In this document: piece by piece, positions 60 to 51,646 of the stretch
Layout of the letters: every line of letters begins with the position of its first letter
Position numbering within the stretch: position 1 is the first letter of the stretch
Assembly (NCBI GenBank): GCA_029061605.1
Contig: JAIDRT010000030.1
Location: 1,693 to 65,692, forward strand
Origin: Clostridia bacterium
GTDB lineage: Bacteria; Bacillota; Clostridia; Christensenellales; UBA3700
Reading direction: 5' to 3'
Length of the DNA: 64,000 bases
Position numbers and translations under genes: made by a program
The notes under the pieces: generated by a model
What the model was told of the DNA's origin: nothing
Databases searched by the model: none
What the model saw: only the letters and a program-made list of their open reading frames with translations

Positions 60-713
60 TTACCTCACGTCGCTTTGAAATGCTACGGCCTTGCCTAATA
101 TGCGTATTTGGTCAAGTTCTTCGCCTACGAACATAAATGGGGCGTAACTTGGATTTTCAGCCTGCAACATAAGTTTTTGGCGTTCGGGGTAGTAGTACAC
201 TCGTTTGAGAGTAGCCTCGTCGCCTATAAGTACTACGGCGATTTCGCCATTGTCAACCATCTCTTGTTTGCGAACAAACACAAGATCTCCATCGTGGATA
301 CGCGCGCCTATCATACTGTCGCCCTTTGCTCTTAGGCAAAAGTCGGCTTGAATGTTTGTGCCAAGCGCGATATACGACTCTTTGTCTTCTTCTGCATATA
401 TAGGCACTCCACAGGCTACAGAGCCGAGAAATGGAATCTTTTGTGTGGATATGGGGAATATATTGTCAAGTTTGAAAAAGTCAAGAGAGTTTTGGGGTTT
501 GTTCTTTTCTTCCCAACCCATAATATATGCTGGAGTTACCCCCAGAACATTTGCTATAATTTTAATCTTATCCATAGGAATATTGGTTATAATACCATTT
601 TCGTATTTAAAAACAGTCTGTTTAGTAGAGTTAATATGCTTTGCTAATTGATCTTGTGTCATATTTTTTTCAATACGCAACAATTTTATTTTTTTTCCTA
701 TATTGTTATTCAT
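60..713 (-). CDS. Prophage repressor, LexA/CI type (XRE-family HTH plus S24 self-cleaving peptidase domain)
   Basis: 217-aa ORF. N-terminal HTH 'MTQDQLAKHINSTKQTVFKYENG'. C-terminal S24 signatures 'AKGDSM' (Ser nucleophile) and 'EATLKR' (Lys). Divergent from a cro-like gene. Confidence 0.85.
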   Translation of the reverse strand: MNNNIGKKIKLLRIEKNMTQDQLAKHINSTKQTVFKYENGIITNIPMDKIKIIANVLGVTPAYIMGWEEKNKPQNSLDFFKLDNIFPISTQKIPFLGSVACGVPIYAEEDKESYIALGTNIQADFCLRAKGDSMIGARIHDGDLVFVRKQEMVDNGEIAVVLIGDEATLKRVYYYPERQKLMLQAENPSYAPFMFVGEELDQIRILGKAVAFQSDVR

Positions 714-4411: not shown

Positions 4412-4873
4412 ATGGCGAAATATAATTGGAGCGAACTCAAGATTGCCTTTCTCAACGGCAATTATAAAAGTCTAAAGGATTTTGCAGAGGAAAGAAACAT
4501 ACCGTATCGGACGTTGCGAAAGTCAGCCGTAGGCTGGGGTAAAGAAAAGCGAGAAAAGACAGGAAATATACAGAAAGAATTATTTGCAAGTCAGATAGAA
4601 AAGGGAAGTTCTTGCAGTACATCAAGAAATGAAAGAATATTAAATGCGCAAGACAAGTTGCTTGAATTTTATGAAAATATAAGTCCTAAAGACATAATAG
4701 AGTGGGCGAAGGACTCGCCCAAGATATTTGTATCATTGACAGCAGGTTTGATCAACTTGCAAAAGATACACAGGCTCGCAGAGGGATTGGATAAAGCGAG
4801 TAGCGTAGAGGACGCAAGCGCAAAGTTGGATAAACTTTGCGAGGCTATAAAGGATGTCAAGAAAAATGAATAA
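4412..4873 (+). CDS. terS: Terminase small subunit
   Basis: Lies immediately upstream of TerL and overlaps it. N-terminal HTH-like 'SLKDFAEERNIPYRTLRKSAVGW'. ATG 4412 has better RBS spacing than ATG 4406. Confidence 0.7.
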   Translation: MAKYNWSELKIAFLNGNYKSLKDFAEERNIPYRTLRKSAVGWGKEKREKTGNIQKELFASQIEKGSSCSTSRNERILNAQDKLLEFYENISPKDIIEWAKDSPKIFVSLTAGLINLQKIHRLAEGLDKASSVEDASAKLDKLCEAIKDVKKNE

Positions 4874-6197
4874 TTATTTTACGTCAAAACAACGTCAAGT
4901 TCTTAGACAGGCAAATAAGCGTTGGAACATCTTGACTGGGGCGGTGCGCAGCGGAAAAACCTTTGTGTCGTACTTTCTAATACCTGAGAGAGTAAAGGAA
5001 CACTACGATAACAACATACTATTCGTTGGCAAAACTGTAAACACGTTAGATAGAAACGTATTTGATCCAATGCGTTCAATCTTTGGAGACAAGTATATTT
5101 CCAAGATAATAGATAAGCGGTTTGTATACATATTTGGCAAGAGATGTTACGTCGTGGGAGCAAACGACGAAAGAAGCATAACGAAGATACAGGGCTTATC
5201 GCTTGGGTATTGTTATTGCGACGAGTTGACTACGTATCCCGAGAGTTTCTTTCAGATGCTAAAGTCAAGATTGGATTTAAGCAATAGCAAATGCGACGCG
5301 ACTTGCAACCCAGAGAGCCCAAGCCATTTTGTCAAGCAACATATCGACAACAACGACTTAGACATATATACTGAGCATTTTACGATATACGACAATGACC
5401 GGCTACCTGCGGAGTTTGTCAAAAACTTAGAAAACGAGTATAGAGGTACGGTATACTTTGACAAGTGGATACTTGGAAAGTGGGTCAAAAGCGAGGGGCT
5501 TGTATTCCCATTGTTTAGACGAGAGAAACATTATATAACGTATCAAGAATATTTAAAATATTATGGCAGCAATAAGATAAAGTACGTAATATGGGGAGTG
5601 GACGGCGCTACGACCAACGATAGTACGGCAATTGTGCCTGTTGCGATTTTGCAGACAGGGCAAGCGGTTGTGCTCGACTTGTTCTATCACAATCCAAAGG
5701 TAAACGGTCAGTTGTCTAACGAGCAACTTATACCTTACATTAAGCAATATATGGATGATATGGAAAGTAAGTACCGATTAAAACAAAACGGCGCTTATTT
5801 TTATACCACGGTGGATTGCGCTGCGGCAGACTTGAAGATCACGCTTGGCTCGCACTTGCCAGCATACTTCAACGTGCATAAGTACACTAAGAAAGATATA
5901 CAGCAGACGACGGATATTGTCAACAATGCTTTGGGGCGTAACGCTGTGATTATTCTTGATATCGGCGGTTATTATAACTACGTTAGGCGGACTTTTGTTA
6001 AAGAGGTATCTCCACTCGTAGTTGATATTGAGAATATGACTTGGGATGCAGACAACAAAAAGTACGACCCAAGCGTGCCTAACGATTGCGCAGACGCATT
6101 TAGATATGCATTATGCGCGTACTTTATCAATCCTGATAATCTTTGGAGTACGCCGGAGGCTAATATCTATTTTAAGGAGAGAATAATAAATGAGTGA
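4854..6197 (+). CDS. terL: Terminase large subunit (PBSX/Terminase_3-like)
   Basis: 447 aa. Walker A 'GAVRSGKTF'. 'CYCDELT' is Walker B-like. The C-terminal nuclease part contains 'WGVDGA...' and 'NDCADAFRYA'. Confidence 0.85.
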   Translation: MSRKMNNYFTSKQRQVLRQANKRWNILTGAVRSGKTFVSYFLIPERVKEHYDNNILFVGKTVNTLDRNVFDPMRSIFGDKYISKIIDKRFVYIFGKRCYVVGANDERSITKIQGLSLGYCYCDELTTYPESFFQMLKSRLDLSNSKCDATCNPESPSHFVKQHIDNNDLDIYTEHFTIYDNDRLPAEFVKNLENEYRGTVYFDKWILGKWVKSEGLVFPLFRREKHYITYQEYLKYYGSNKIKYVIWGVDGATTNDSTAIVPVAILQTGQAVVLDLFYHNPKVNGQLSNEQLIPYIKQYMDDMESKYRLKQNGAYFYTTVDCAAADLKITLGSHLPAYFNVHKYTKKDIQQTTDIVNNALGRNAVIILDIGGYYNYVRRTFVKEVSPLVVDIENMTWDADNKKYDPSVPNDCADAFRYALCAYFINPDNLWSTPEANIYFKERIINE

Positions 6198-7809
6198 AGA
6201 ATATCAAAAATTGCGTCTTAACGAAAAGACGCCTGAATACGTAAATGCCTCGGCATTCAATACGTATGCAACTTACGCATTGACGAGTCACGCCGCATTC
6301 TATGCAATGGTAGACTCAACATATAACGGATTTATGAGGCGGTGGGTGCAGAATTGGCTGTGGTGGTATGATGGATACGTGCCATATTTTCATAATCAAC
6401 AGAACGGTATATTCAGTACTAGGATGGGACAAGCGCTCGTTGATAAAATGGCAAAAAAAGTCGTCGGCGGTCGAGTAATGTTCAAAGTCAGCGGAGAAGA
6501 GCGCAATTTACGCAAGGCATCTGATAGACCGTTGACCAACGAGGCGTTGCAATATGTCAACGAGTGGGCGAAAGATACTGACTTTGCAGGAGCCGTTAAG
6601 CGCGTCGTGAGGTTTGCCGCAGCGGCAGGCACTGGGCTTTTGAAGATAAACAAGAGCGGCGGTAAGTATTGGGTGGACGCGTTACGCTTTGACAGTTTTT
6701 TGCCTACGGTAGACTTTAGAGGTCGAATTATTGACGTAAAGTGCTATCTGCAACCTTATACTAGAATGTCGGCAGATAGAAAGGGCAACGGAACAGCGTA
6801 CTATCTCGTTGAGCATAGATATTACGGAGAGTATACGAGGGCGGACGGTAAGGTGATTTGGAACGCTCCTCTTGCGACATATGAAGTGCACGCCGTCAGC
6901 GGCAGTATTGAACTTGCACAGTATGACGCAGGTAAAGGAAGCAGAGTGCCTTACGAGAGTTTACCTAAAGCAGTTCGTAAGAGTATACGCAAGGACTTCG
7001 GCGTTATGATAGACAAACCTATGTTGTTGCCGTTTTCTGAAGATATGAGCCTTGGTTGCGAACTTGTCAAATGGACGGACGGCGTAAGCAATCTGCCTCA
7101 AGTACCATTTGGTGAAAGTTTGTTGGCGCCTGTCATTGCACAACTTATGGCGTACGACTATTACTTCTCGGCGTTCAACACGGATATGTACACCGGCAGA
7201 GCAAGAGTGTTGACCTCAACGGCTATGATGTCTCCAAACAATGGAGGGCAAAACAGCGGTATGGATAATTACTTGCTCACCAAAATACCTAATTATAGCG
7301 GAGACGACCAAAAACCGATACCGCTACAGTTTGACTTGCGTTCGCAATCCTGGGCGGAGATACGTGACCATATAATACAAAATATATCTATTCTTACAGG
7401 AATCAACGTGGCTACTATAGCCTCATTTCTCAATGACAGTCAAGCGCAGAAGACGGCTAGAGAAGTCAGCGTAGAGGAAAATGAGACGGCGTCTGGCATA
7501 TATGAAAAGAGAGAAATTATAGAGCGACCGATAAATCGCATAATCAAGTCGATTATACGACTTGCCGGCTACAACGACGATATCGTCGTTCGGTGGAGTA
7601 CGAGCGAACTTATGAATGCTTTCAATCGTTTGGATTACGCTGTGTCCGGTGTTAACAACGGAATAATGTCCAAGGAGAGAGCAATCAAGATGCTTAATCC
7701 AGATGACGACGACGAACAAATTTTTGACGAGTTAAAAACCATTGAAGAGGATGGCAATAATGCTCAAGTCCAACCAATTGATAATTTGCGGAAAAGATCA
7801 AAATCGTAG
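6190..7809 (+). CDS. Portal protein
   Basis: 539 aa. Overlaps the TerL stop. Size and position are typical of a portal. Confidence 0.7.
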   Translation: MSEEYQKLRLNEKTPEYVNASAFNTYATYALTSHAAFYAMVDSTYNGFMRRWVQNWLWWYDGYVPYFHNQQNGIFSTRMGQALVDKMAKKVVGGRVMFKVSGEERNLRKASDRPLTNEALQYVNEWAKDTDFAGAVKRVVRFAAAAGTGLLKINKSGGKYWVDALRFDSFLPTVDFRGRIIDVKCYLQPYTRMSADRKGNGTAYYLVEHRYYGEYTRADGKVIWNAPLATYEVHAVSGSIELAQYDAGKGSRVPYESLPKAVRKSIRKDFGVMIDKPMLLPFSEDMSLGCELVKWTDGVSNLPQVPFGESLLAPVIAQLMAYDYYFSAFNTDMYTGRARVLTSTAMMSPNNGGQNSGMDNYLLTKIPNYSGDDQKPIPLQFDLRSQSWAEIRDHIIQNISILTGINVATIASFLNDSQAQKTAREVSVEENETASGIYEKREIIERPINRIIKSIIRLAGYNDDIVVRWSTSELMNAFNRLDYAVSGVNNGIMSKERAIKMLNPDDDDEQIFDELKTIEEDGNNAQVQPIDNLRKRSKS

Positions 7810-7863
7810 AGTTTAGATAGCCGTAAGCAATAAATTTGGTAGCAAAAAAATATCAAGACAAAT

Positions 7864-7888
7864 GACAACCGGTGGGTTGTCCTTTTTA
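7864..7888 (+). terminator. Intrinsic terminator-like hairpin after the portal gene
   Basis: GACAACC-GGTG-GGTTGTC followed by CTTTTT. Confidence 0.55.
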
Positions 7889-8072
7889 ATGCAACGAAGA
7901 GGCATTCACCTCTTTATATACAAAGCCTTAGGCAGGGCTTTAACTTGCTAGGACTACCATAGACGCGTGGCTAGGCTGGTTGCGGCGCAGTCGCAAGAGG
8001 CTAAAAACGGCTGGCGCGAGTAAAGGTTGTCCGAAACGAATATATTCGAGACCCAAACAGGAGGTTAAAAAA

Positions 8073-21301: not shown

Positions 21302-21326
21302 GGCAGGGGAAACCTTGCCATTTTTC
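21302..21326 (+). terminator. Intrinsic terminator at the end of the prophage late operon
   Basis: GGCAGGG-GAAA-CCTTGCC (one G.U pair) followed by ATTTTT. Confidence 0.55.
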
Positions 21327-21438: not shown

Positions 21439-21459
21439 TGGCAGAGAGTGAGGTATTTG
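21439..21459. repeat. Partial duplicate of the tRNA-Ser 3' end (att-type direct repeat, distal copy)
   Basis: TGGCAGAGAGTGAGG is identical to 27318-27332 (15/15). The next six positions match 5/6, giving 20/21 overall. Confidence 0.75.
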
Positions 21460-21891
21460 TAAGGAGCGAAGCGACGGAATAGCGAGCAAACAATATTTAA
21501 AAAGGCGAGCGTCACAATTTCAGTGATCTGCAACTCTCGCAAAACTTAAGGACACTTTGGAAAGTGTCCTTTAAAATGTGCGTGATGAACAAAAAGGATT
21601 TTTTTAGGGGATACCAGAAGTCGGGACTTGAACTCCACTCGCATAGCCGAAGGCGGGATTTGAACCCCTAAAATCAATTTTTTTCTTATTTAAATTATAT
21701 CACAAAAGGTGTGTTGCGTCAATAGTTGGAGACAAATTTTTTAAAAATTTTATAGATAATAAAAATGTTAAAAAGACGATGTGCAAAATAGAAAAACTAA
21801 TTGTAAAAAATTTATAACAATTTATGGCTTTAAATGAAAAATAGTATAACATTTTGTTAAATAATTTTTTTTGTAAACTATTAGAAAATAG

Positions 21892-21920
21892 TTGACAACT
21901 TTTTTAAAAAATATTAAGAT
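21892..21920 (+). promoter_or_regulatory. Promoter of the island ORF-A/ORF-B operon
   Basis: TTGACA, a 17-nt spacer, then TAAGAT. The palindrome AACTATT-AGAA-AATAGTT (21876-21893) abuts the -35. Confidence 0.5.
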
Positions 21921-21963
21921 ATAATTCTAAACAAAAACCTATTTAAATCGGGGGTGATTTATC

Positions 21964-22890
21964 TTGCCAGAATTACGCAGAATATATTGGGAAATTGCTC
22001 ATAAGGTAAGTTTAGAGTTTTCAAACTTTTCTTATGAATTTGATGTTAATGATTTGAATAGAAGAATAGATAAAATTTTGCTTGAAATAAAAGAAAAATA
22101 TGGCATTGCAAATATGCCTTCTATAAACATTTCAAAAGATGTAGATTTAGTAAATATGACTGATGATGCTGTAAGATTTATTATTAGTGATGAAAATAGT
22201 GCGATTAACGATAATAAATTTGTAAATAGTTCATATATAATTTCTTGTAAAATTGCTAAAGTAATGAAAAAGGGCACAAACAAAAATTACAGCATTGAGT
22301 TAGTTACTAATGATGTTAAAAAAATATATAGTCTTATAATCGATGCAATGTTAGATACTCATATGTTTTATTTGTATGGCTGGAATAATGAGTATGGCAA
22401 TTTAGAAAAGAAGAAAGAGTTTTCTAAATTAAAAGTTAGTTTTTGCAAAAAACATAAATTAACTAGTGTTTTAGATGAATATATAGATTATGATAACTAT
22501 TGTTCCTTTGCTACTTTTTGTAGGAATGATGATTATTCTTTAGACATAGAAAAATTTGTACAACTATGGAAAAAGTTTTCTAGTGAGCTTTTATCAAATT
22601 TGAATCATAAGGATAAAGAGTCTATAGTAGAAGACATTTGCAAGAATTATAAGCATGGTGCAATTTCTAAAAGAAAATTGAAAAACATGATGAAAGATTT
22701 ACCAATGGGTAAGTATTCATTTATACGTATAAGTCGGAAAGTACCTAATTTCCATGCAAAAAAAATGGAATCATTATTTAATGGATCTATAAAAATAGGA
22801 AATATGATTATAATTGATACAATAAAGAAATATAATTATAAAAGGTATTTTGATGCAAAGTACATAGACATAACCGATTTTATTATTTGA
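21964..22890 (+). CDS. Island ORF-A: hypothetical protein, no recognisable domain
   Basis: 308 aa. A TTG start lies 7 nt after GGGGGTG. Rich in Lys, Asn and Ile. Confidence 0.6.
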   Translation: MPELRRIYWEIAHKVSLEFSNFSYEFDVNDLNRRIDKILLEIKEKYGIANMPSINISKDVDLVNMTDDAVRFIISDENSAINDNKFVNSSYIISCKIAKVMKKGTNKNYSIELVTNDVKKIYSLIIDAMLDTHMFYLYGWNNEYGNLEKKKEFSKLKVSFCKKHKLTSVLDEYIDYDNYCSFATFCRNDDYSLDIEKFVQLWKKFSSELLSNLNHKDKESIVEDICKNYKHGAISKRKLKNMMKDLPMGKYSFIRISRKVPNFHAKKMESLFNGSIKIGNMIIIDTIKKYNYKRYFDAKYIDITDFII

Positions 22891-22900
22891 TGATTTATAT

Positions 22901-23860
22901 ATGGGGAAAGAGAATAAGAAGACATTCATTGCTTTTTTTGATTTGCTTGGTGTTAAATCAACGGCTGAATATGATTTTAAATTATATTTTAATTATATAA
23001 ATAGATTTCAATCTCATTTACAGGATTTGGTAAAAGGTCATAATGAGGTTGAAATCTATGCGTTTAGTGATTGTGCATATCTTGAAAGCGAATCATTAAG
23101 TAGTTTATTACAAATTTTAAGAGATTTGCGTAGAGTATTATTTTTAGAAAGAATATATTTTAATGCGGCAGTAACAGAAGGTAGTTTAAACGCCACAAAG
23201 AAATCAGGTGAAAAAATAGATTTTACTTTGTTTAAGTCTGCATCTACAGTTAAAGTTTTTTCATTACAAGTAAACTTTACAGGTATAGGTATTTTTATAG
23301 ACGAACATATAAAAAAGTATATGAAAGGAAATTTAAAGAAACTATTAATTGAAAGTGCTTATTGTGTTAATTTTGAACCTAAAGGTATTAGTACATTTAA
23401 TAAGTTTCTTGATGTTAAATTTATAGAGGTATCGAATCAATTACTAAAATATCTTATAGAGCAGTATTTATCCACTATGACATTAAACGTAAAAGCTTCT
23501 AGATACTATTTATCAGCTATTAATACTTTAATTAATCAAGTAGATTTTGATGATTTAGGGGAATTCATAGATGAAATATATAGTTTATTTTATAAGGACA
23601 CATTTGCAACAGCATTTCTACCAATTGATTTAATGTTTATTAATGCTATTTATAATGGTTTTAGGGAAAAACATGAAGGTCAAATTAATTTATTAGACGA
23701 GTATAATAATTTTTCAGATATCAGTAGAGTTTTAGATAAAGTAATAAAAAAATCGTACTTGGTTAAAGGCATTGTAGATTTAAGATTACAGTCAGATTGT
23801 TTAATAAGTAAAGATAATAAGCATTTATTAGCCAATTATCTGAGTATATATAAAGGATAG
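22901..23860 (+). CDS. Island ORF-B: protein with a class III nucleotidyl-cyclase/GGDEF-palm-like N-terminal domain (putative)
   Basis: 319 aa, starting 10 nt after ORF-A. 'FIAFFD14LLGV' compares with 'FADIxGFT'. 'IYAFSD57CAYL' compares with 'KILGDCYY'. 'IYFNAAVTEGSL' and 'VNF' follow. The Asp-Asp spacing is 43 aa. This is a motif-level call only. Confidence 0.35.
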   Translation: MGKENKKTFIAFFDLLGVKSTAEYDFKLYFNYINRFQSHLQDLVKGHNEVEIYAFSDCAYLESESLSSLLQILRDLRRVLFLERIYFNAAVTEGSLNATKKSGEKIDFTLFKSASTVKVFSLQVNFTGIGIFIDEHIKKYMKGNLKKLLIESAYCVNFEPKGISTFNKFLDVKFIEVSNQLLKYLIEQYLSTMTLNVKASRYYLSAINTLINQVDFDDLGEFIDEIYSLFYKDTFATAFLPIDLMFINAIYNGFREKHEGQINLLDEYNNFSDISRVLDKVIKKSYLVKGIVDLRLQSDCLISKDNKHLLANYLSIYKG

Positions 23861-23950
23861 GATAAATTTTTGCTTTTCAAAGGTGCTTATAATGGCAAAA
23901 TAATTAGAAAACACTTATGAAGAATAGAATTATAAGAGCCTTGGCAAAAA

Positions 23951-24013
23951 GCAAGCCGTTACATAAGTAGCGGTTTCTTCCATTGCCACATAAATCATTA
24001 TTTGTTAGAATAA
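23951..24013 (+). repeat. Copy 1 of a 63-bp terminator-plus-promoter junction repeat
   Basis: Hairpin GCCGTTAC-ATAA-GTAGCGGT with a T-rich tail. Then TTGCCA (23983-23988), a 17-nt spacer, and TAGAAT (24006-24011). About 85% identical to 26122-26183. Confidence 0.75.
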
Positions 24014-24053: not shown

Positions 24054-25190
24054 ATGACAGCATCGGAACAAATTTGCAATGAAATTGGAGCAAAGTTTTT
24101 TAGCAAAGATTTTGTTTATGAAAATTTAAAATTTTATAATGAAAGTAATAAAAGAGTTGAGTTGTGTGACGCCTTATTTGAGTATGCTTCGGTATATGTA
24201 CCTATACAAATAAAGGAACGATCGAAAAATAAAGGCAACAAAACAGAAGAGTCATGGTTAAATGAAATTGTTTATGGAGCAGCGTTTAATCAAATTAAAG
24301 CCACAGTTAAAGCAATTAGAACGGATAATATTGAAGTGAACGATTTATATCATCAAAAGGTTAAATTATGCAAAGATAATTTAATATTCCCAATGATAGT
24401 ATTTGATAATCCCAATATTACTGATTATAAGAGAATTATCATAGATGGGGAACTTATAATCAATGTGTTCAAATTGGAAGATTATGAATCTATGATGCAA
24501 GCAATAATACATCCGTATGACATTATATATTATCTACAAGAGAGAGCTAATTGGATTCAGGATTATAATTTGCCTAATATCGTAATTGGCGAGGGGGTGC
24601 ATAGTACAATTCTTGCTTCAATTAAAACGGAACAGGATTTTGCTTTGTTTTTTATGCAATATATTTACGAAGGTCAAAGTGATAAGCAAAGAGAGGCGTT
24701 ACGTCACCTTAGTTTGATAAATACATTTAGGGATCGTTTAATAAAGAAAGTTTCAAATTATAAAGTGATATTAAATATTCTAGAATTAATAGAACCGAGA
24801 AATGCCGATGGATTTATGAAATGGTTTGATTATGCTTGGAGATGTGCTTGTGATGATAAATTTGATTTTACAAAATCAGTTCAAGTACTATACAATAGTA
24901 AAAAAACGGACATAGTATTCTTTTCTATTGGAAGAAAAGAGTTGGCTTCTAAAAAATACTATCAGTTGCTTCTTGATGCAAAACAATTGCAGCATAAAGC
25001 GGACGCAGTGTTAATTTTCGCATTTATTGGTGATGAGGGAAATAAATGCCACAATGATTGGGTTTATATGGAAAAAGAATACGAGGAAGATGATGATTTC
25101 TTAAGATTTTATGACTCAATAGGAATGTTTAATGGTACAATGAGTTATGAGATTTATGATGAACTATGCAGAAAAATGATTGGCAAATAA
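24054..25190 (+). CDS. Island ORF-C: protein with an N-terminal PD-(D/E)xK (NERD/restriction-endonuclease-like) motif and an unknown C-terminal domain
   Basis: 378 aa. RBS GGGAGAG. 'RVE36LCD39ALFEYASVYVPIQ52IK54E'. Confidence 0.45.
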   Translation: MTASEQICNEIGAKFFSKDFVYENLKFYNESNKRVELCDALFEYASVYVPIQIKERSKNKGNKTEESWLNEIVYGAAFNQIKATVKAIRTDNIEVNDLYHQKVKLCKDNLIFPMIVFDNPNITDYKRIIIDGELIINVFKLEDYESMMQAIIHPYDIIYYLQERANWIQDYNLPNIVIGEGVHSTILASIKTEQDFALFFMQYIYEGQSDKQREALRHLSLINTFRDRLIKKVSNYKVILNILELIEPRNADGFMKWFDYAWRCACDDKFDFTKSVQVLYNSKKTDIVFFSIGRKELASKKYYQLLLDAKQLQHKADAVLIFAFIGDEGNKCHNDWVYMEKEYEEDDDFLRFYDSIGMFNGTMSYEIYDELCRKMIGK

Positions 25191-25541: not shown

Positions 25542-25566
25542 CGCATTAATTTAAATGAGGAAAAGT

Positions 25567-26091
25567 ATGATTGAGAGACTAATTAAAGAAGTAGAATGTT
25601 GTTTGAAAAATGAACTTTATATGTCGGCTTTAACGATCGTATTAACTTTGCCGGATATTTGTGGTAAAGCGGAATTTCCTGAATTAGGGAATGGAGAACG
25701 TTATAGAAAATGGTTGGATCAATATGCTTGTTCACAAGACTTCAATATAATTAGGAGTGAAGAGATATATAAATTGCGTAATAGCATGCTGCACCAGGGT
25801 TCCCCAACAACAAAAAAGAAAGGGGAAGACATTGATGAATTTGAGTTACTTATACAAGATCCAAATAGAGCGAGCAAAATGATGCAATCTAGGTATCAAG
25901 ATTTCAATAAATGTGTATTGAGTATAAATATAGAGTCTTTATGTGGACTTATTTGTTCGGCATCAACAAAATACTATGCTAATAATAAAGAGAAATTTGG
26001 TTTTATTAATTATCGAATAGTAAGCATGGATTATAGTACAGCGAAAATTTTTAGAATAGACAGAGAAGCTGTTAAAATAAAATTTGATTAA
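25567..26091 (+). CDS. Island ORF-D: small helical protein with a HEPN-type RNxxxH motif (putative RNase, Abi-like)
   Basis: About 174 aa counted from ATG 25567, with a GAGG RBS 6 nt upstream. 'KLR75NSMLH80QG' (numbering from ATG 25555) fits Rx4-6H with Asn after the Arg. Confidence 0.4.
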   Translation: MIERLIKEVECCLKNELYMSALTIVLTLPDICGKAEFPELGNGERYRKWLDQYACSQDFNIIRSEEIYKLRNSMLHQGSPTTKKKGEDIDEFELLIQDPNRASKMMQSRYQDFNKCVLSINIESLCGLICSASTKYYANNKEKFGFINYRIVSMDYSTAKIFRIDREAVKIKFD

Positions 26092-26121
26092 ACCATATGA
26101 AAGATGAGCAAATTAATAAAC

Positions 26122-26183
26122 GCAAGCCGTTACGTAAGTAGTGGCTTTTCCATTGACACATAAACCATTACTTGTTATAATAA
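26122..26183 (+). repeat. Copy 2 of the terminator-plus-promoter junction repeat
   Basis: Hairpin GCCGTTAC-GTAA-GTAGTGGC with a T-tail. Then the consensus TTGACA (26153-26158), a 17-nt spacer, and TATAAT (26176-26181). Confidence 0.75.
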
Positions 26184-27317: not shown

Positions 27318-27338
27318 TGGCAGAGAGTGAGGGATTTG
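27318..27338. repeat. Proximal copy of the att-type direct repeat (inside the tRNA-Ser 3' end)
   Basis: See 21439-21459. Confidence 0.75.
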
Positions 27339-27407
27339 AACCCTCGGAACGGTTTCCCGTTCACACGATTTCCAATCGTGCGCCTTCGACCACTCAGCCA
27401 ACTCTCT
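27318..27407 (-). tRNA. tRNA-Ser(GGA): tRNA-Ser (anticodon GGA)
   Basis: The reverse complement folds as a cloverleaf. Acceptor AGAGAGT / ACTCTCT. Anticodon arm CACGA-TTGGAAA-TCGTG. Long variable arm GAACGGGAAACCGTTC. T-arm GAGGG-TTCAAAT-CCCTC. Discriminator G and an encoded CCA. Confidence 0.9.
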
Positions 27408-33773: not shown

Positions 33774-35015
33774 TCAATGCAATAAAGAGAGCACGAATTG
33801 CTCTGCCATACGTCCAGACCTTATTCCGTTGCGTATTGCCCAGGTCAACGCCTTTTTTTCAAGAGCGCTATCGTCTATATCAACGTCGTATCTTCTGGCA
33901 AGTTGGCGTACGATATTGAGAAACTCCTGTTGGTCGGGCGAAGGATAGTATATAGAAAGACCAAAGCGCGCTACGAGAGACAGTTTTTCATTCTTCGTAT
34001 CGGACTTGTGAAGTTCGTCCATAGGATCTATGTCGTTGCCGTCGCTGTAATGTTCTTTTATCAGGTGTCTACGGTTGGAAGTTGCGTAGATAAGCACATT
34101 GTCGGGTTTGACTTCCAGTCCGCCGTCGATTATTGCCTTAAAATATTTGTATTCGACCTCAAAGTCGTCAAAAGAGAGGTCGTCGAGATAAAGTATATAT
34201 TTGTAATTCCTACCTGAGATTTTGCTTATTAGGTCACTGATATGCATAAATTGATGTTTGTACAATTCTATTACTCGCAATCCCTCGTCATAAAACTCGT
34301 TGATAAGCGCTTTTATCGTCGAAGATTTGCCTGTGCCCATATCTCCGTAAAGAAGTACGTTGTTTGCCTTTTTCCCCTCAAGAAAAGCCTTGGTATTTTG
34401 CAAAACTTTTTGCTTTTGCAAATCGTAGCCCACGAGATCGTCGAGACGCTTGTTGTCCATACACGTTATGGGCAGAAGTCTTGCGCGGTTATTTTCGTCA
34501 ACAACTCTAAAGGCTTTGTTGAGCCCCAATTCGCCCACTCCGTATGCGCGGTAAAATCCCACTGTCGTATCTAAAAACGATTGTGTTGTCTTGCACTTTG
34601 AAAGATCAAAGGCAAGTTTTTCAATTAGATTGGCGTACGGCAACGTCGACTGCGTCACAGTGCTTTTAAAATTCGTTATTGGTTTTAAACTTTTTTCTAC
34701 CGTCGGCAGAATAGATGGGGACGTATTAAAAACGTCCATAAGAATACGGCAGTCGTCGTAGGCAAATTCTAGAAGAGTTCCGCTTACGCTTTGCTTTCGT
34801 TCGCAAGCCAAAGAAAAGACGTTTTCGTTGCTTGCTATGAAATAAGCGATATAATAATGCCAAGCGTTGCCTTGCACTGCGTGTTTTTCAGCAAAAGCAA
34901 TTAACTTTCCAATCAAGTTGAAGGCTTGCAAATTGTTTTGCGGAAATTCTGCAAAATCTTTTAAAAGCGAGCCTTTAAGGTCGTATAGTCTTAAGTCTTT
35001 TATGTTTTTTATCAT
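33774..35015 (-). CDS. P-loop ATPase (DUF815/AAA-like)
   Basis: 413 aa. Walker A 'YGDMGTGKSS'. Walker B 'ILYLDDLSF'. Confidence 0.7.
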   Translation of the reverse strand: MIKNIKDLRLYDLKGSLLKDFAEFPQNNLQAFNLIGKLIAFAEKHAVQGNAWHYYIAYFIASNENVFSLACERKQSVSGTLLEFAYDDCRILMDVFNTSPSILPTVEKSLKPITNFKSTVTQSTLPYANLIEKLAFDLSKCKTTQSFLDTTVGFYRAYGVGELGLNKAFRVVDENNRARLLPITCMDNKRLDDLVGYDLQKQKVLQNTKAFLEGKKANNVLLYGDMGTGKSSTIKALINEFYDEGLRVIELYKHQFMHISDLISKISGRNYKYILYLDDLSFDDFEVEYKYFKAIIDGGLEVKPDNVLIYATSNRRHLIKEHYSDGNDIDPMDELHKSDTKNEKLSLVARFGLSIYYPSPDQQEFLNIVRQLARRYDVDIDDSALEKKALTWAIRNGIRSGRMAEQFVLSLLH

Positions 35016-38014: not shown

Positions 38015-41000
38015 ATGAAAAAGACTAAGTTTATTACCGTACTTTTGCTGTTAGCGGTATTGGCAAGTGTGCTTCTCGTAGCGTTTGTTGCCTGCGAGCC
38101 TAAGCCAGACGTTAAAGACGATAATCAACAAAGCGGCAATAGTGGCGAAATCCCGCCAGATGAGCAGCCGCCTTGGACGCCTCCAGATAACGGCGGTGGT
38201 AATAACAAGCCAAAGCCGCCAACCTATACAGCCAAGGAGATGCTCACTAAGATCATTGAATCAGTGGAGGTGCCTGAACAGGCTCTCAATATTGACATAA
38301 ACGCAAAAGTTGATACCGAAGATCAAGTGACGACTATAAACTTGAAAGGTAACTTCTATAACGAAGTCCGCAACGAACTTTGTTTTGCCGTTTACCAACA
38401 ACAAAAGGGCGAGGCTGACTCGCAAAGGCAGTTGGTCTTTGCAATTTACATAGTCAACGACAAGATTTATATAGATATGGCAGACGGTACGCCGCTTATT
38501 TATCTGTCTGATTTTGACTTCAATTATTTAGTTCAAATCATTGAAGGCGCAGGCGGTATGGTGTCAGACTTGATGGGCTCTCTTGACCAGTATAAGGGTC
38601 TCATAGATCTTGTGTTCAATTTTTTATTCGCTACTCCTCAAGTAACTGTCAACGAAGATAATTCTCAATCGCTTGCAATGGAGTTGAAATTAAAGGGACT
38701 CTTGAGCGGCGCCAGTTCTTTGATCGGTTTGTTGCCGTTTGATATTCCTGTAGATCTCAAGCCTCTCTTAGACTACTTATCAAATTTAATTCCCGATCAT
38801 ACTTTATATATAAATGCAAAATTTGACAGCGATAGCAATTTGGAAACCGTAGGCGTCAGCGGCGTCGATAAGACCGCTAACAATAAAGACGTCTTCGATT
38901 TGAGCGTAACGATAGACATACGCGACGAGGCAGAGACTGATATAGGTTTGCCGGGAGACTTGGCAGATAGGGCTATATCTGAATTTAGTTTTACAAATTT
39001 GCAATTCTCTATTGATTTCATAGTAGACTCTGTAAAAGACGAGAGCGGTCACAATAAGAACTTTGACCTTGGAAAGATGCTCAACAGTTTCCTTGGAACG
39101 TCTACGACGATAAGAATACCTGAGGGCTTATTGCTTCTCAACGGCGGCACAGGCGTGAGACTTACGTTTAAGTTGGACTTGGATCTCAACTATGACAAGT
39201 TGCCGCAGGATAACAACAAAGTTGCGATTGAACTGTATCTAATCAATCCTGACGGCACTCTCGTAGATAAAAACTTCAAGCCTCAAATGGGAATTTACTA
39301 TAAAGAAGGTAGTTTTTATCTCAATACGGACAATATGTTGCCTCAATATCTCAACGGACTCAATATAAAACTTGACGCAAGTCTCAACGATTTGGTATCC
39401 AAACTCGTCGATCTCATTACTGACGCTATTGACGGCGTATTCGGTCTTGATTTTGCGGGACTTCGCAAGAATGAAATACAAGTAAACGACAACGGCTCTT
39501 TGACGCTCTCAAGTATGTCTGCGGTGCAGAAGGTAATGGCGTCTACAAGCGCAAGCGTAGTCGCGCTTTCTACTGAAAGCGACGGCAGTTATAAACTTTC
39601 GGCGGGTATCGGAAGTTTTGTTGATATGTTGGCAAGTCTTTTGGGACTCGGCGGACAGATTAAAGACGGCGTCGTGGTAGTAGAGCCTAATATATATACC
39701 GACGATACAAGCATAAAAGTCGTCGTAAACGACAATTTCTTTGAAGTGCTTAGCGGTCTTATACCGCAATTGAAAGGCGTGTCCTTGCCAAAGGAAATAG
39801 GTGATATAGTATTGTCCGTCAACACCTCTCAAGTGGGACTTGACAGCGTCACGGTAGAGACTGTGCTCAACAATACGTCGCAAGTACCCGGTCCAAACAA
39901 CAGTACGGTTACAATTACCGATCCAGCGTTTGCAATACGTCTAGGACTTGGAGGATTTGTTATTGGCTTAAAGGACGATACTTTCTCGGATTACATAGAC
40001 AGCAGAGTGGATGTTGAAAATACCGACTATCTCTCGTCGCTCAACGGCGTGATAGAACATATGCTTGGCGGTATTAGATTTAGCAGCGGATTCTCTCTTG
40101 ACTTTGCGGCAGGCACGTATGATCTTGCGCCGTTTATCGCAGGATTCGGGGTGTCGGAAGTAGAGTCTTCGCAAATCTTGTGGACGTTTGACAACGACTT
40201 CACATTAGACGCGTCACTCAACTTGCAAATTGCGCTCAATAGAACGGATACGGCAAGATCTATGATAGTTTTGGAGATGAAGACTGAGAGCGGAATCAAA
40301 GTCGGCGACCACCAGATCATAGAAAAGGATCAAGTCTTGCTGGGTATATACGGATATAATAATAATATTTATATAGATATATCCAACTTCAATATTGCGG
40401 GTATCGTATTGCCAAAATTGAGTTTCTCGCTCAACTTCACAGACTTGGTATACACGCTTCTTGACAACGTAATAAGCGACTTGCTTAAAAATATTAACGT
40501 GCAAGGCGGAGATCTCAAGTTTGAACTTGACTTCAAGGAATTGCTTGGACTTACGTCTAGCGTCGTAGCGCAAGCAGGCGAAACGCAAAATTCAACTTCG
40601 CGCCTTGCAACTTACGCTCAAACACAAGAAATTGATCCGACTGCGGCAATAATATTTGCATTCAATGCGGATAAGTTCGTTCCGTCGATCTCGCTTGCCG
40701 CAATTCTCGCGGTGCTCAGCGCAACCAATACCGATATAGGCAATACCTTGGCAGAGGCTCTCAGCCTTATGGAATTGGATCTGTCAATTGAGTTGGGAAG
40801 AAACGACGGATTTATCTTCTCCTTTAGCGGTGAATTTATACCTAAACTTGACGAAAACGGCGAAAGCGTATATTACTTTGACGACAAAGGTAATCCTATC
40901 GCAAAAGAAGAGGGCAAGATATACAGAAATATCAAAGATAAGCCTACAAGCAACGAAAACGTAAATCCCAACGTAGTTTACTATACGACTAAGAAGTATA

Positions 41001-44000
41001 ATTACGGCAGCGATATGAAACTGGTATTCTCGGCGGGAACTCCCGACCACCGCGTTATCGTGGGTAATCTTGGAGAGCATAAGTATCCAATTGAGCAGAA
41101 AGCGCAAGAATTTGTAGATTATAAGTCTGATCTCATTGAGGCTATCGTCAATACTGTGGGTAAGGCTTCGGTACAACTGGATATAGACCTCCATACTCTT
41201 GACAATGAGATGAACGTCACACGTCTCATCAACAGTATCTTGGCAAACGTAGGTAAAAAACTCGAATTGCCGATATATCTTGACCTTGACGATTGGAACA
41301 CGCACGTTCAACTTGCATTGGCTTGGGACCTTGACTTGAATAGATCCTCCAATAGCAAGATAATGCTTGAATTGAGATATGAACAAAAAATTATTATGGG
41401 TGTGTATATTCACCGTAATAGCATTATCGTCGACCTTACAGGTTTGGGCTTGTTCAGCGGTGAAATTGTCAATTCTACTATCGTCTCCAAAGTATTCGCA
41501 ATGATAGACGGAGTTATCAAGAATATAGGCAATCTTGACCTCAACGATATAATCAACGATTTGTTGAAGAACAACGGTTTACCGACGGTGGGAACAAAAC
41601 CCGAAGATACTGACAAACTTGCTTTGGGCGAAGAAGTTGCCGCAGACGGCAGCGTGGCTACGCTTGGCGAGGGATTGGAAGTCAAAGATTTCATTAAGTA
41701 CTTGACGCAAGCCATCCATTTGGAGAATACGGCTATCGTCATAGACTTTACTTCTTCGATCATCAATGGAATGCTTAACGACCTTGTTGGCATCAATCTG
41801 GGACTTAATCTTGGACTGGACGGCGTATTCGACTTGTTCGGAGACAGTTTTGATATGGGCTTTACCGTAGAAGACATCACTATGGACTTGTCTCTCAGTT
41901 TGTCACTTGGTAAGGAAGTTATTATACCTATCAACTTCGACGACGTGCCTGACTGGGATGCAACGAGCGGAGAGAGATTTGTTACCACTTTGCTCAACAA
42001 CCTTGATATAGGATTTACTATTGACCTTGCCAACTATACCGGCGACACGGTCAACCTTGAGAATTCCAACAGCGGCGATAGCGTTACGGACAACAATAGG
42101 ATGTATACGAGAATTATTATTGAGAAGGTTACTACGTCAAGCGGTAAAAAACTGACCGGAGTGCAAGGAACGCCAGTGGCTCCGCAAGGCACCTTTGTAG
42201 TTACGCTCGCGCATATCAACAAGGCTATGTACGACGATAATCAGTCTGCATCGGCAAGCGCAACTCCTCTCGTATATGTAGTGCTCGACCACAGAAAGAC
42301 TTCAGGACAGTTGATGTTGGCTCTTACCTCTAATATTCTTACGTTTGGAGCGTTTAACATAGGAAATATGGTGGGAACGCAATACATAAATTTGGATATC
42401 GTGGGTATGTTGGGACCTGTAATAGACAATCTATTCTCGTCCATAGACGGCGCGTTGGACGGTATGAATAACCAGACTGTTGCAGCGATGGCGTTGGACG
42501 ACGGCATTTCAGCGCAGGAAGAAGAGCCGACCGGACTTAACAAAGTATTTGCAGAACTCGATTTAATCAAGTTGCTTGGCGAGAAAGGTATAATGATCAA
42601 TTTGAGAGCCAACGGCACCTTCAACGTAACGATCAATTTTGATACCTATCTTATCAACAAACTTATTGACGATATTTTGAGCCACGTGTTTGCAAAGAAT
42701 ACAGGACACGCTTCGATAGTTGATTTGAGCGTTATGGCGCCTGATATGTTTGACAAAGACTATCTCGGTATGGTCACCTGGACGAGAGAGACGTTTGGCG
42801 CGCAAGGAAAGAGCAATACTTTCTGGGGCGATTTCAGAGAGATTATAGTGCCTATGCTTCAAAGCCTTGTGAAAGGTTTGGGATATAAAGAAGCAGCGCC
42901 ATTATTGGGAGGCGCAGGCTTCTTATTGGGAGACATATTCTACCAAGTAAGACAGATACTGTCAGGCTTGTTGCCGTTTGCGGTATGGAATACTGCGACG
43001 CTCGAAGTCAACGTTGTGGACGCAACCATATCCAATATCCACTTCATAGGTGAGGACACTGACGAGGATATCTATTATGACAATGATCCTAGCAAGGGCG
43101 TAGCCTACAGCAAGGATAAGGATGCGAGAGTCAAAGGTTATTTCACAGAGATATTTATCTACAACTCTTCAAAGAGCGTAGGCGGATCTACTGCGGACGG
43201 TACAAACAACGGTATCGTGACGTGGGCTGACATTCCGACCAGCATAACCTTTATGCCATATATATATACCACGGTCAAAGATGGCGTAGATGAATTGATT
43301 GAGGCACACTTTAAAAACAAAGTGGCAATTTACCAAAAGGGTACCACTATAATGAGATCCAACGTTAAGTTCAAAATAGTTAACGCCAACGGTAGTGAAG
43401 AGGATGTCGGACCTGAAAACCTTTTGGCTAGGTTAAGCGTGGCAGGACACTTCCAAATCAAAGCCATTGCCAACTTCTCAGGCGGAATTACTAGCACGTT
43501 GATGATAGACGTGGAGTCAAGAGATACCGGCGGCGGTCTAGATTACGTAGAAGATATTGAGATGCACGCTTATGACGATACGTTGCCTGATTTCTTGACG
43601 ATATACACAAAAGACGGCAAGTCGAGAAAGATAAATACAGAGTACTTGTCTGTGTCAAATTGGAGACCGACTGATTACAAGGCGCACGACGTGCAGGCTA
43701 CAGTTGCGTTCAAGAACGGCACTACGTTGCCAATGACTATACATTACCTTGATAGCACGGTAACTAAGATAATTATCGACGGTACGGAAGGTATCAACGT
43801 CAATATCGATCTCTATCAGTTTGACATTAATACGTCTAAGATAGACGACTTTACTCCGTCGACGCTGTACTTCAAGTATCCCGACGGCAAGGCAGTGGGA
43901 CTTGACGTACTCAGCGGTTGGGAAACCTCGGCGGCAACTGCTAATCTCTTTGGCAGACCTATTGACGTAGACGGCAAGTATTCTTCAGACGTCAGCGGCG

Positions 44001-45910: not shown

Positions 45911-45925
45911 TTGGGGGAGAATTAG

Positions 45926-48900
45926 ATGAGAGTAAAAACTTTAAAGAGAATAAGTCTAATATCAATTTTAATAATAGCAGCGCTTGTTGTGTCTTTGGTT
46001 GCAGTGACGTTTTTGACGGATACTCAACCTAAGGCGCAGGCTGCTGCGGGTACGCTTTATACGGCGGAGTATCAAGGTGACAACGGCACCTTGGACGGAC
46101 AACATTACGATAGAAATTTTATAGCCGCAAAATACGGCGTTTCTACAAGCCAAGTTTTTTCCATCGCTTCTGGCTTGGAATTGTATAAATTTCTCAATGG
46201 AGAGTACAGCAGTTATAAAGTAGGTTTTCTTACTCGTGACGTGGCTATTGCTTATAACGCCAGCGTAGACGGATATGATACTATATCTGAAAACAGTTCG
46301 GCTGCTATCTTTGACGACATATTCGACGGTAACGGTTATACTGTAAAAATCTATGGCGGAGCAGGCGAGGCCAATTCTACCGTAGAGATCGAAGATGATT
46401 ACGATTATAGATTGACGTATAGAGATGGCAATCCAAAATACGACAACAACGGCAATTATCAAGTTTGGTACGAATATACAGGATTTTTAGTTGCTCAAAA
46501 CTACGGTACTATTGCCAACTTTACTATTGACTATACTTCTCCTCACAACGTAATCGAGGCGGTCAAAGTCGGAGATTTGAAAATTACTACAGCGAATAGA
46601 TTGCTCTCAAAAAGAGAGGGCGTCTTTGTTGCGGGAATAGTCGCAGGACTCAACGGATACGGCGGAGTCATTGACAACTTGAAGATCAATGTTAAAAATG
46701 CTTTTACAGTAGTTAAGCAGAACAGTGCTGATAAAGATGGCGGAGTACCTAATAAGAGTGCAGGTTATGCGGGCGGTATTGCCGGCAGAATAGAGGACAA
46801 CAGCAAAATTAACAACTGTTGGGTAGACTTGGCTTACGGCGCAGGTGTATCTGCCGGCGCTGAAGGTAGAGTATCTCAATTTCCAGCGACGGATAATAAC
46901 AATACCTTTGCGGTTGCAGGCGGAATCGTCGGCAATATTGACACAGGTACTGCTCAACTTACTTACTGCGCTTTGTCAGGCAGCGGACAAGTCAAAGCAT
47001 TTGCCAACAGAGGATCAAACGACTCAAAGTTTAGGGCTTATTCGGGAGGAATAGCAGGCGGTTGTATTAGATTTACGGGTACATCAACCAAAGGTACGGC
47101 AATCGTAGTCGACTGCAATAGCGACACCAACGTGCGGGTTAAGTCAGGACAAATAAAAGGTATTATTTCGTCCTGGACAGGAAGCAGATTCACCAACTTC
47201 AATAATAATCCGAAAGAATCTATGGGGTCGCTTTTTGACGCTGTGGGAAGCGATGACGAAATAGAGAGTCTTGCAATTCTATTTAATCTTGAGACTTTGA
47301 TGGACAATAACCCCACTGCGCACAAACCGACGTCAACTGATGGAAAACTTGTGTTGGACTCTTCGGGTAATTTAAGAAATTGGCTGGAGATACATCCTGC
47401 TTCCGAAGGCGGAACAATGGGTGTAATGTTTGACACAGACAATTCTAATTATGATATAAGAATACATATAATTGCGGACGGACACGACGAATTCAAAAAC
47501 AGCGGAGTTATGAACAATGTCGATATGAGCGGCTCAGCGCGTTATTATCAATACAAAATGCGCGAGGGCGACGGCGGAGGCTTCATTTGGTCGGGTACTT
47601 TTTCAAACGCTAACGACTCATCCAATCACATAAGTCTTGCTCTTGATGATCCTATCTACGCAGAGATCTATATGATTTCTTCGACAAATACCGGTAGTTA
47701 TAATTATGAGTTCGGACGTATGGGAATACTTGAGTACAGCGATACCAACGGAAACAACGGAGTAAAGCCGTATAACGGTACGGCAGATCCGCTTAAACTT
47801 CCATCTGTCTCAATGACGAATTATCCTGCGTTTGATACGAGCGTATTTACAAATGAGAATCTTTGGAATATTTCGCGTAGCGGCAAAAATGTAAGTCTCT
47901 CTCAGACTTATATGCCCGGTACGTACAGTATGAGAGTTGAGACTAAACTTGGCGAGCGTTCGTACGGATATTATAATGAGACGGAAAGGATGCTTGCTTG
48001 GCAACCTAGTGCGGATTACGTGTTTACGATATTGCAAGGCGTGCTTAGTTTTGGTAATAGAACAACGACTGCGGACGGCTGGCAGGATCAAGTTACGTTC
48101 GAACTCACTATGAATAGCGCAAGCGACTTTGACAGTATTGAATTCCAACGCAACGGAGAATTCCCAAGTAATTCAACAGAGGGCTTTACACGAAGCGGAG
48201 CAAGCGCATTCTATACTGTAACTGAGACTACAGGTAAAAACGGTACGGCTTATACATTCTATGCTTACAAGAGAGACGCTGTCACTGAAGAAAACGTCGT
48301 GGTAGCAATAAGCGAGAGCAGAACTGTGCGTATAGACAGAGAGGCGCCTGAAGTAAGCGAAATAGAGTACTATATGGTCGAAGACGGCGGAGAGAGACTT
48401 TTGTCCGACGAGGACTTAGAATATATTCAAGAGCACTGGACAAAAAATCAGATTTTGGCAAAGTTCTCCGTAAGCGACAACGGAAAGTCAGGTATTGCCA
48501 TTGCGGCTACAGGCAACAATATAGAAGAAACTGTGCTTAATAACAATGGAGACAGAGAGGTCGTGGTTACTATCAACGACAGCAAGCCGTTGATATTGGA
48601 GTACACTGACGCAAGAGGTCATACAACGCCTGTAAAATTGCAAGTCAATATAGATAGAGTAGAAGGCAGACTATCATTCTCAGGCTCGTCCTATAGAACA
48701 GAAGGTAGATTTAACTACAGTACCAAAAACGTATCAGTGCGCTACGTTGCCAACTTCGGTATGTCGGGTTGGAGAATGTATTACAGTTATCAAAGAGACG
48801 CGCAGGGCGAAGATATTTGGATAGCAAGTCCAGATCTTTTGACGGACAGCGGAGCAGTAAAGACATTTACTATTGACTGGAATATGGGCAACATCAACAC

Positions 48901-51631: not shown

Positions 51632-51646
51632 TATGGAGGAAGAATT

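Follow-up and report, generated by a model that had tools for sequence, protein, structure and literature searches.

A 64,000-nucleotide (nt) stretch of contig JAIDRT010000030.1 from a Clostridia bacterium, all of which was analyzed and is hereafter called the window, carries two adjacent open reading frames, ORF-A and ORF-B, that form an obligate gene pair and the second of which is predicted to adopt the fold of class III adenylyl and guanylyl cyclases. We propose that this pair is a mobile cassette of two genes that most likely serves as an anti-phage module of the abortive-infection type, in which ORF-B would make a nucleotide product and ORF-A would act as its receptor or effector; we put the probability of this reading at roughly 0.45. 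The coordinates of both genes and of the features around them are collected in Table 1.

An initial annotation of this DNA had described ORF-B as a class III cyclase-like palm enzyme and had quoted four peptides from its translation, all of which are indeed present (KTFIAFFD14LLGVKS, EIYAFSD57CAYLES, LERIYFNAAVTEGSL and FSLQVNFTGIG). The exact sequence of ORF-B is not on record. Searches of a collection of 5.8 billion proteins yielded 20 homologs, the alignment of which was used for AlphaFold2 modeling, and an exhaustive profile search raised the family to 377 cluster representatives at 50% identity from three phyla, 143 of them below an expectation (E) value of 1e-30 and nearly all 300-370 residues long. 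The resulting model of ORF-B is of high confidence, with a predicted local distance difference test score (pLDDT) of 89.6 and a predicted template-modeling score (pTM) of 0.90. Its elements follow one another as a strand (residues 9-16), helices (18-45), two strands (50-55 and 58-63), a helix (66-82), three strands (86-93, 98-102 and 107-111), a helix (114-125) and a strand (130-133), after which come two more strands and a helical bundle that extends up to residue 317. The order of elements is that of a strand-helix-strand-strand-helix-strand core.

Comparison of the model with the PDB using Foldseek returned 114 matches at E<=1e-3, the best 50 of which are without exception catalytic domains of class III adenylyl or guanylyl cyclases (E values of 2e-6 to 7e-5; template-modeling scores of 0.55-0.72, normalized by target length). 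Among the PDB matches are Cya2 (2W01), an Rv1625c-like structure (5O5L), Rv1900c (1YBT/1YBU), Ma1120, soluble guanylate cyclase, CyaC, CyaB, bPAC and OaPAC. Proteins with guanylate-cyclase domains also rank first among the predicted viral structures of BFVD, with E values of 2e-5 to 1e-3, ahead of reverse transcriptases (about 1e-2) and of the best GGDEF-type protein (0.046). Because cyclases outscore both of these other palm families in BFVD and fill the best 50 places in the PDB, the predicted palm of ORF-B is specifically cyclase-like, and the structural check called for at the outset finds the cyclase/palm core in place. PDB profile searches with ORF-B found no cyclase; the matches that profile searches of this kind gave for ORF-A and ORF-B (a designed repeat protein, malate dehydrogenase, CdiI, Rep) were rejected as spurious.

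Conservation was assessed across 143 diverse relatives that are 20-63% identical to ORF-B and align with a mean column identity of 14%. D57 is present in 100% of these sequences and D14, G17, S56, R77, G128, D171 and Y203 in 99%, followed by F111, G94, G130 and Y29 at 93-94%. In the model, D14 lies in strand 1 within the motif (Y)IAFxDLLGTK, S56 and D57 sit on the turn between strands 2 and 3 within the motif FSDCAY, and R77 is found on the helix that follows this hairpin. D14 and D57, as modeled, hold the topological places of the two metal-binding Asp residues of class III cyclases. In class III cyclases an Asn/Arg pair stabilizes the transition state, and a Lys/Asp or Glu/Cys pair reads the base. 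The 43 residues that separate D14 from D57 bear out the spacing of about 44 that had been proposed, and compare with 44 residues in Rv1625c, whose sequence was checked against PDB 4P2X/1YK9, and with the same number in the Pycsar cyclase EaPycC (D102/D146; PMC11224242).

An hhalign comparison of the ORF-B profile with Rv1625c, itself non-significant (probability of 0.3%), is colinear over 150 columns and places D14 and D57 on the two metal-binding Asp residues, with the canonical Asn and Arg positions of helix 4 aligned to K118 and L122. The K118 column is variable (K 32%, D 15%, R 10%), as is that of L122 (L 28%); the adjacent Q123 is kept in 79% of the 143 relatives. The "VN" motif to which the initial annotation had also appealed does not hold up, in that V124-N125 falls at the far end of helix 114-125, N125 is conserved in 18% of sequences, and the canonical Asn position is that of the variable K118. 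To judge by these alignments, the metal-binding half of the cyclase site is kept in the ORF-B family and the other half is replaced by invariants of the family's own, namely R77, D171 and the RYY triplet at 201-203.

The link between the two genes is strict. A direct search with ORF-A returned two relatives, and the gene lying 5' of ORF-B homologs on unrelated contigs proved to be an ORF-A homolog. Using hidden Markov models iterated locally on 74 loci from genome and metagenome collections, we found an ORF-A homolog directly upstream of ORF-B and on the same strand in 68 of the 68 loci with enough upstream DNA; the six loci that lack one begin less than 250 nt from a contig end. Five further loci (L075-L079) likewise carry ORF-A directly 5' of ORF-B, and no third conserved gene was found around the pair. 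Within the ORF-A family, R71 and D131 are invariant, while R6, S90, H91, K157 and Y179 are conserved at 90% or above. This combination of basic and aromatic residues with one Asp would suit a site for nucleotides or nucleic acids.

As regards the nature of the partner, no match to ORF-A was found in Pfam, PADLOC, PHROGs, NCBIfam or PDB profiles, and none was found when 25 relatives were scanned singly. ORF-A has no transmembrane (TM) segment, its maximum 19-residue Kyte-Doolittle hydropathy being 0.91. Together with the lack of any domain match in ORF-A and 24 relatives, this value upholds the description of the partner as neither a TM, nor a TIR, nor a cyclic nucleoside monophosphate (cNMP)-binding protein. 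Foldseek run with the weak ORF-A model gave no fold match (best E value of 0.9), and the NucC rows in its output were disregarded as their probability was 0.03. A degenerate second (C2-like) cyclase domain was also considered for ORF-A and rejected, hhalign against ORF-B and the Rv1625c domain giving about 0.1% and no colinear alignment.

The organization of the junction between the two genes is suggestive of their joint expression. As had been reported, ORF-B starts exactly 10 nt past the ORF-A stop codon and has no ribosome-binding site of its own; the gap, TGATTTATAT, and the bases just 5' of it contain no purine-rich Shine-Dalgarno sequence. A gap of 10 nt is also found in the closest relative pair. 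Of 35 distinct junctions, at least nine have a spacing of -4 (an ATGA overlap) and most one of -1 to +15; the few longer gaps, of 24-77 nt, come with a Shine-Dalgarno sequence of their own. Because the gaps are tight across these 35 junctions, coupled translation of ORF-A and ORF-B is probably a family trait, and the coupling first suggested for the window copy is strengthened by the obligate pairing and by the tight junctions throughout the family.

The two genes probably make up a bicistronic unit, because a hairpin lies 3' of ORF-B and the ORF that follows has a promoter-like site to itself. A simple terminator scan did not call this hairpin, as no clean T-run follows it. Promoter-like sites are not enriched in the AT-rich region that holds the pair (38 found versus 33.9 expected). 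We note further that a 28-nt repeat, 82% identical between 21731-21758 and 21894-21921, duplicates the promoter-like region of ORF-A 163 nt further upstream, that a strong divergent promoter-like site is found on the minus strand at 21722-21694, and that a 30-nt repeat, 87% identical between 23947-23976 (after ORF-B) and 26118-26147 (after a 178-residue ORF described below), has the look of a shared terminator-like hairpin.

The pair is found in three phyla, Bacillota, Bacteroidota (Chitinophagales) and that of Rhizobium, with representatives in metagenome-assembled genomes (MAGs) of Ruminococcus, Lachnospiraceae and Acutalibacteraceae, in one Chitinophagales MAG, and in many contigs from human and termite gut. 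A high-GC version with an ATGA overlap is encoded by the Rhizobium leguminosarum megaplasmid NZ_CP016287.1 (L078, positions 5958-8026), where its neighbors are a large serine recombinase, a helix-turn-helix (HTH) transposase-like protein and a 1046-residue radical-SAM protein. Another copy is carried by an unverified "Bacteriophage sp." contig from human feces, and the closest relative pair belongs to an element that encodes an integrase and a Rep_1 initiator, beside a DUF4062 protein. In seven human-gut metagenome contigs (L058 and L061-L066), the reading frame of the ORF-B homolog is broken into two or three pieces, owing either to pseudogenization or to assembly errors.

Some of the genes near the pair are known defense genes. 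The 148 neighbor clusters found within about 3 kb include AbiLi (3), AriA/GajA-like ATPases (3), cytosine methylases (2), Fic proteins (2) and recombinases (2); other immediate neighbors are an HD/dGTPase-like protein, an adenosine-deaminase-domain protein and a Cap4 nuclease gene. In a Ruminococcus MAG (L007, 9032-10575), a CAP12/Pycsar-type TIR protein is encoded 15 nt after ORF-B and is followed by a ThsA_Macro protein, such that a Thoeris-like pair may share the operon of ORF-A and ORF-B; the observation extends to a second locus (L012, 1264-1901). As effectors of ORF-A and ORF-B these TIR and ThsA_Macro proteins were rejected, being confined to that lineage and having the appearance of a separate Thoeris-type system. 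Taken qualitatively, the gene neighborhoods bear the signature of mobile defense-island cargo. Att-like repeats, integrase and recombinase neighbors, Cap4, AbiLi and the TIR and ThsA_Macro proteins thus lend qualitative support to the defense setting in which the pair was originally placed.

The att-like repeats just mentioned are those of the window itself. Its first part, from position 1 to about 21.3 kb, is a prophage, for which no close phage relatives were found. Past the end of the prophage lies a copy of the 3' end of a tRNA-Ser gene that is located further downstream, this sequence having two matches in the window against none expected in 100 shuffles. The left copy probably marks where the prophage ends on its right side. 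In the 5.9 kb that separate the two copies, GC content is 0.25-0.31, compared with 0.40-0.47 elsewhere, and no other part of the window is strongly AT-rich; this segment holds ORF-A and ORF-B, a 378-residue ORF, a 178-residue ORF and an alpha/beta hydrolase gene, and no integrase gene was found within it. The pair hence appears, from repeats and base composition, to lie on a separate att-bounded islet between prophage and tRNA gene, outside the prophage proper. This islet could be a remnant or a hitch-hiker. Because repeats of the tRNA-Ser 3' end bracket an AT-rich islet that lacks an integrase, the arrangement suggests a tandem accretion of elements at one tRNA attachment site. A scan of the region with Rfam found the tRNA and no other structured RNA.

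The 378-residue ORF (24054-25190, plus strand) and the 178-residue ORF (25555-26091, plus strand) are orphans that have no match in Pfam, PADLOC or NCBIfam; the latter matches phrog_18591, of unknown function (E value of 9e-30). Each has its own promoter-like site and may be a separate cargo gene. Neither these two genes, nor that of the alpha/beta hydrolase, nor that of a 308-residue membrane protein upstream were retained as parts of the system, as they do not recur beside the pair elsewhere.

We infer from this body of evidence a course of events that would begin with the synthesis of ORF-A, made first and, by way of coupled translation, in fixed proportion to ORF-B; an effector-first, cyclase-second gene order is known in clade F Pycsar systems (PMC13069673). 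D14 and D57 of ORF-B would bind two divalent metals and a nucleoside triphosphate (NTP), R77 and K19 being candidates for phosphate binding, and ORF-B would use the NTP to form a nucleotide product, cyclic or modified in some other way; regulation or sensing is probably the task of its helical C-terminal domain. ORF-A, most likely the receptor or effector, may bind this product through R6, R71, H91, K157, Y179 and D131, and would then arrest the cell or the phage.

Several observations weigh against this reading. At the sequence level, ORF-B matches nothing in Pfam, PADLOC (E<=1, PycC model included), PHROGs or NCBIfam, and neither it nor its 143 relatives match the cyclase (PF00211), GGDEF or mCpol profiles at E<=1; the initial assignment of a class III cyclase-like palm accordingly stands for the fold, which is predicted with high confidence, but not for the sequence. 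No conserved counterpart of the Asn/Arg transition-state pair is found in helix 114-125 of the 143 relatives, and the purine-specifying Lys/Asp is not recognizable in the ORF-B family. The statement that order, spacing and local chemistry all match those of canonical cyclases therefore holds for the order and spacing of the two Asp residues and was too strong for the chemistry. Because the Asn/Arg half-site is absent, the chemistry may indeed differ from simple 3',5'-cyclization. As to the partner, the AlphaFold2 model of ORF-A, built from six sequences, is poor (pLDDT of 59.9), and no cNMP_binding or TIR match was obtained with ORF-A or 24 relatives. The ORF-A of the window moreover has Tyr at position 91 (codon 22234-22236), where 23 of 25 aligned members, the two closest relatives included, have the His of an S-H motif; the window copy may be weakened, or it may be a functional variant. 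Lastly, no homolog was found among the 2.9 million viral contigs of IMG/VR, and known defense genes are a minority of the 148 neighbor clusters, which comprise many unrelated genes. The association with defense is a qualitative one.

A more detailed version of our proposal, which we advance tentatively and hold to be less probable than the general one, is that ORF-B uses its non-canonical site, made up of the Asp dyad and R77, to make a messenger that is perhaps unlike 3',5'-cNMPs, that this messenger is read by a soluble ORF-A whose fold would be new to defense systems, and that the cassette has spread horizontally through gut Firmicutes, Bacteroidota and Rhizobium.

The alternative that survives best, unlikely as we consider it to be, is a toxin-antitoxin or abortive-infection pair similar to AbiE. 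ORF-B would then be a toxin, a palm-domain nucleotidyltransferase whose target is tRNA or another macromolecule or whose product is a toxic nucleotide, and ORF-A a protein antitoxin or inhibitor from which infection frees the toxin. Partner-first gene order and ATGA overlaps, the latter frequent in this family, typify type II and type IV toxin-antitoxin operons, and the strict 1:1 co-occurrence with no third gene and the mobile location are in keeping with such a pair, as is the retention of the two metal-binding Asp residues alone, which would be enough for generic nucleotidyl transfer. The properties of ORF-A argue against an antitoxin: the protein is as large as ORF-B, it has a conserved polar set of its own (R71, D131, H91 and K157) that is more like an active or binding site, and domain searches revealed neither an HTH nor another antitoxin domain in it. 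The predicted fold of ORF-B, in addition, fits cyclases far better than it does polymerase or transferase palms.

Rather more doubtful is the possibility that ORF-A and ORF-B build a heteromeric enzyme, or a sensor-enzyme complex, that works without a diffusible messenger. ORF-A would in this case sense a phage cue or supply substrate-binding residues, and the activated complex would act directly, for example by depleting the NTP pool. Class III cyclases need a second subunit, which completes their active site. Head-to-tail cyclase dimers have been described (PMC11224242). That ORF-B is devoid of the Asn/Arg half-site, that ORF-A has invariant Arg, Lys and Asp residues, and that coupled translation favors a fixed stoichiometry would all be accounted for by a composite active site of this kind; ORF-A, however, resembles neither ORF-B nor a cyclase domain, and no fold could be matched to its weak model. 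An NTP-depleting enzyme of cyclase fold would, furthermore, be without precedent among defense effectors, none of those known to us being of this type.

We regard as improbable a signaling or regulatory module with no part in defense, which would serve either the mobile element, in the control of lysogeny or maintenance, or the physiology of the host. Most class III cyclases are ordinary signaling enzymes, many neighbors of the pair are housekeeping genes, and the pair has no PADLOC match, but its patchy distribution across phyla with variable flanks, the anomalous GC content and att-like repeats of the islet, and the repeated presence of known defense genes next to it all point elsewhere, as do the frameshifted copies in some strains, which would be expected of dispensable and costly cargo. 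Very improbable, finally, is a catalytically dead, cyclase-like scaffold whose fold resemblance has no enzymatic meaning. In its favor are the lack of the canonical Asn/Arg and of the base-specifying residues and the failure of any cyclase profile to match at the sequence level. If there were no catalysis, however, it would be difficult to account for the near-absolute conservation of D14/D57, G17, S56 and R77 across 143 sequences whose mean column identity is 14%.

Table 1. Positions in the 64,000-nt window of ORF-A, ORF-B, their putative expression signals and the flanking features.
Feature	Position	Strand	Remarks
CI-like repressor	60-713	-	Prophage
Terminase	4854-6197		Prophage
Portal	6190-7809		Prophage
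Tail genes	up to 18.5 kb		Prophage; lysis-like genes also there
Terminator	21302-21319		Prophage
Left att-like repeat	21439-21459	+	Repeats the 3'-terminal 21 nt of tRNA-Ser (27318-27338) with 20/21 identity
Sigma-70-like promoter candidate, TTGACA-17-TAAGAT	21892-21920	+	44 nt 5' of the ORF-A start; consensus match only
Shine-Dalgarno sequence of ORF-A, GGGGGTGA	21950-21957	+	6 nt before TTG; read from the sequence
ORF-A	21964-22890	+	TTG start; 308 residues; TGA stop ending at 22890
ORF-A/ORF-B junction	22891-22900	+	10 nt, TGATTTATAT; no Shine-Dalgarno sequence
ORF-B	22901-23860	+	ATG start; 319 residues
ORF-B N-terminal domain (residues 1-135)	22901-23305	+	Predicted class III cyclase-homology (palm) fold
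ORF-B C-terminal region (residues 136-319 and stop)	23306-23860	+	Two strands, then helical bundle; D171 and R201-Y202-Y203 conserved
Hairpin 3' of ORF-B	23942-23988	+	Free energy (dG) -22.1 kcal/mol, z -5.0; probable transcript end
tRNA-Ser(GGA)	27318-27407	-	3'-terminal 21 nt (27318-27338) form the right att-like repeat

Elsewhere in the window, the host part encodes a DUF815 AAA ATPase (33774-35015, minus strand; E value of 1e-89) with weak similarity to STAND NTPases. Three consecutive giant ORFs of 2631, 1901 and 2113 residues (38015-57988, plus strand) have no Pfam domain at E<=1e-5, which is unusual for proteins of their size.

Placed next to the canonical class III cyclases (Cya2, 2W01; Rv1625c, 4P2X/1YK9; Rv1900c, 1YBT; soluble guanylate cyclase, 3UVJ), ORF-B matches in predicted fold and strand order, in the strand-1 Asp that is followed by a Gly three residues on (FxDxxG), in the Asp of hairpin 2-3 and in a Gly-containing strand 4. 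It differs from them in having no detectable sequence homology and in that its family does not conserve the helix-4 Asn/Arg, the base-reading Lys/Asp or Glu/Cys or the strand-4 Arg, its invariants being instead S56, R77, D171 and RYY201-203. Among defense systems, Pycsar has the same two-gene operon layout, with an enzyme of class III cyclase fold, two metal-binding Asp residues about 44 apart and one partner, as well as a comparable mobile or defense-island context, which for ORF-A and ORF-B is a qualitative likeness. Clade F Pycsar systems share, in addition, the effector-first order and the presence of Thoeris in the operon or neighborhood (PMC13069673; cf. L007). ORF-B nevertheless matches no PycC or Guanylate_cyc profile, lacks the class III motifs with the exception of the two Asp residues, and has an extra helical C-terminal domain of about 180 residues, and ORF-A is devoid of the cNMP-binding, TM or TIR domains of Pycsar effectors.

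Panoptes, which combines mCpol, a minimal synthase with a Cas10 palm, with a 2TM-beta or CARF-TM effector, is similar to our pair in associating a small palm enzyme with a single partner, and it illustrates that cryptic palm enzymes can generate defense signals (PMC12657218, PMC12657230). ORF-B, in contrast, has no mCpol or GGDEF profile match, its hairpin reads FSDC rather than GGDD or GGDEF, and Foldseek against BFVD puts cyclases far above GGDEF-type palms (2e-5 versus 0.046), while ORF-A is soluble and has no CARF domain. The AbiE system, of the type IV toxin-antitoxin and abortive-infection kind and composed of the antitoxin AbiEi and the nucleotidyltransferase AbiEii, resembles the pair in that a partner of about 300 residues comes first and a nucleotide-using enzyme second, the two being tightly coupled and mobile; AbiEii is, however, of Pol-beta fold and ORF-B of palm/cyclase fold, AbiEi has a winged-helix DNA-binding domain whereas no HTH was detected in ORF-A, and PADLOC gave no AbiE match.

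Full-text literature searches found no description of the ORF-A/ORF-B family. Judged by its sequence and predicted structure, what is new in this pair is a sequence-invisible enzyme of cyclase fold with an altered active site and an obligate, uncharacterized partner; the claim of an architecture new to nucleotide-signaling defense is borne out insofar as the pair escapes the Pycsar, class III and mCpol profiles and has no description in the literature searched. Pycsar was reportedly discovered by searching defense islands for proteins that match cyclase profiles, an approach to which more divergent enzymes would be invisible. In the ORF-B family, with its 377 clusters, it is structure prediction only that reveals the cyclase fold. 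Should ORF-B be active, the family would represent a new branch of signal-generating enzymes, possibly with a novel messenger or a novel use of the cyclase fold, and ORF-A would bring to bacterial immunity a new fold for an effector or receptor. Such systems could then be uncovered by screening, at the level of folds, orphan pairs that are tightly coupled and lie on tRNA-linked islets. With a size of about 1.9 kb, two soluble proteins and clear candidate active-site positions in D14 and D57, this small system is directly testable.

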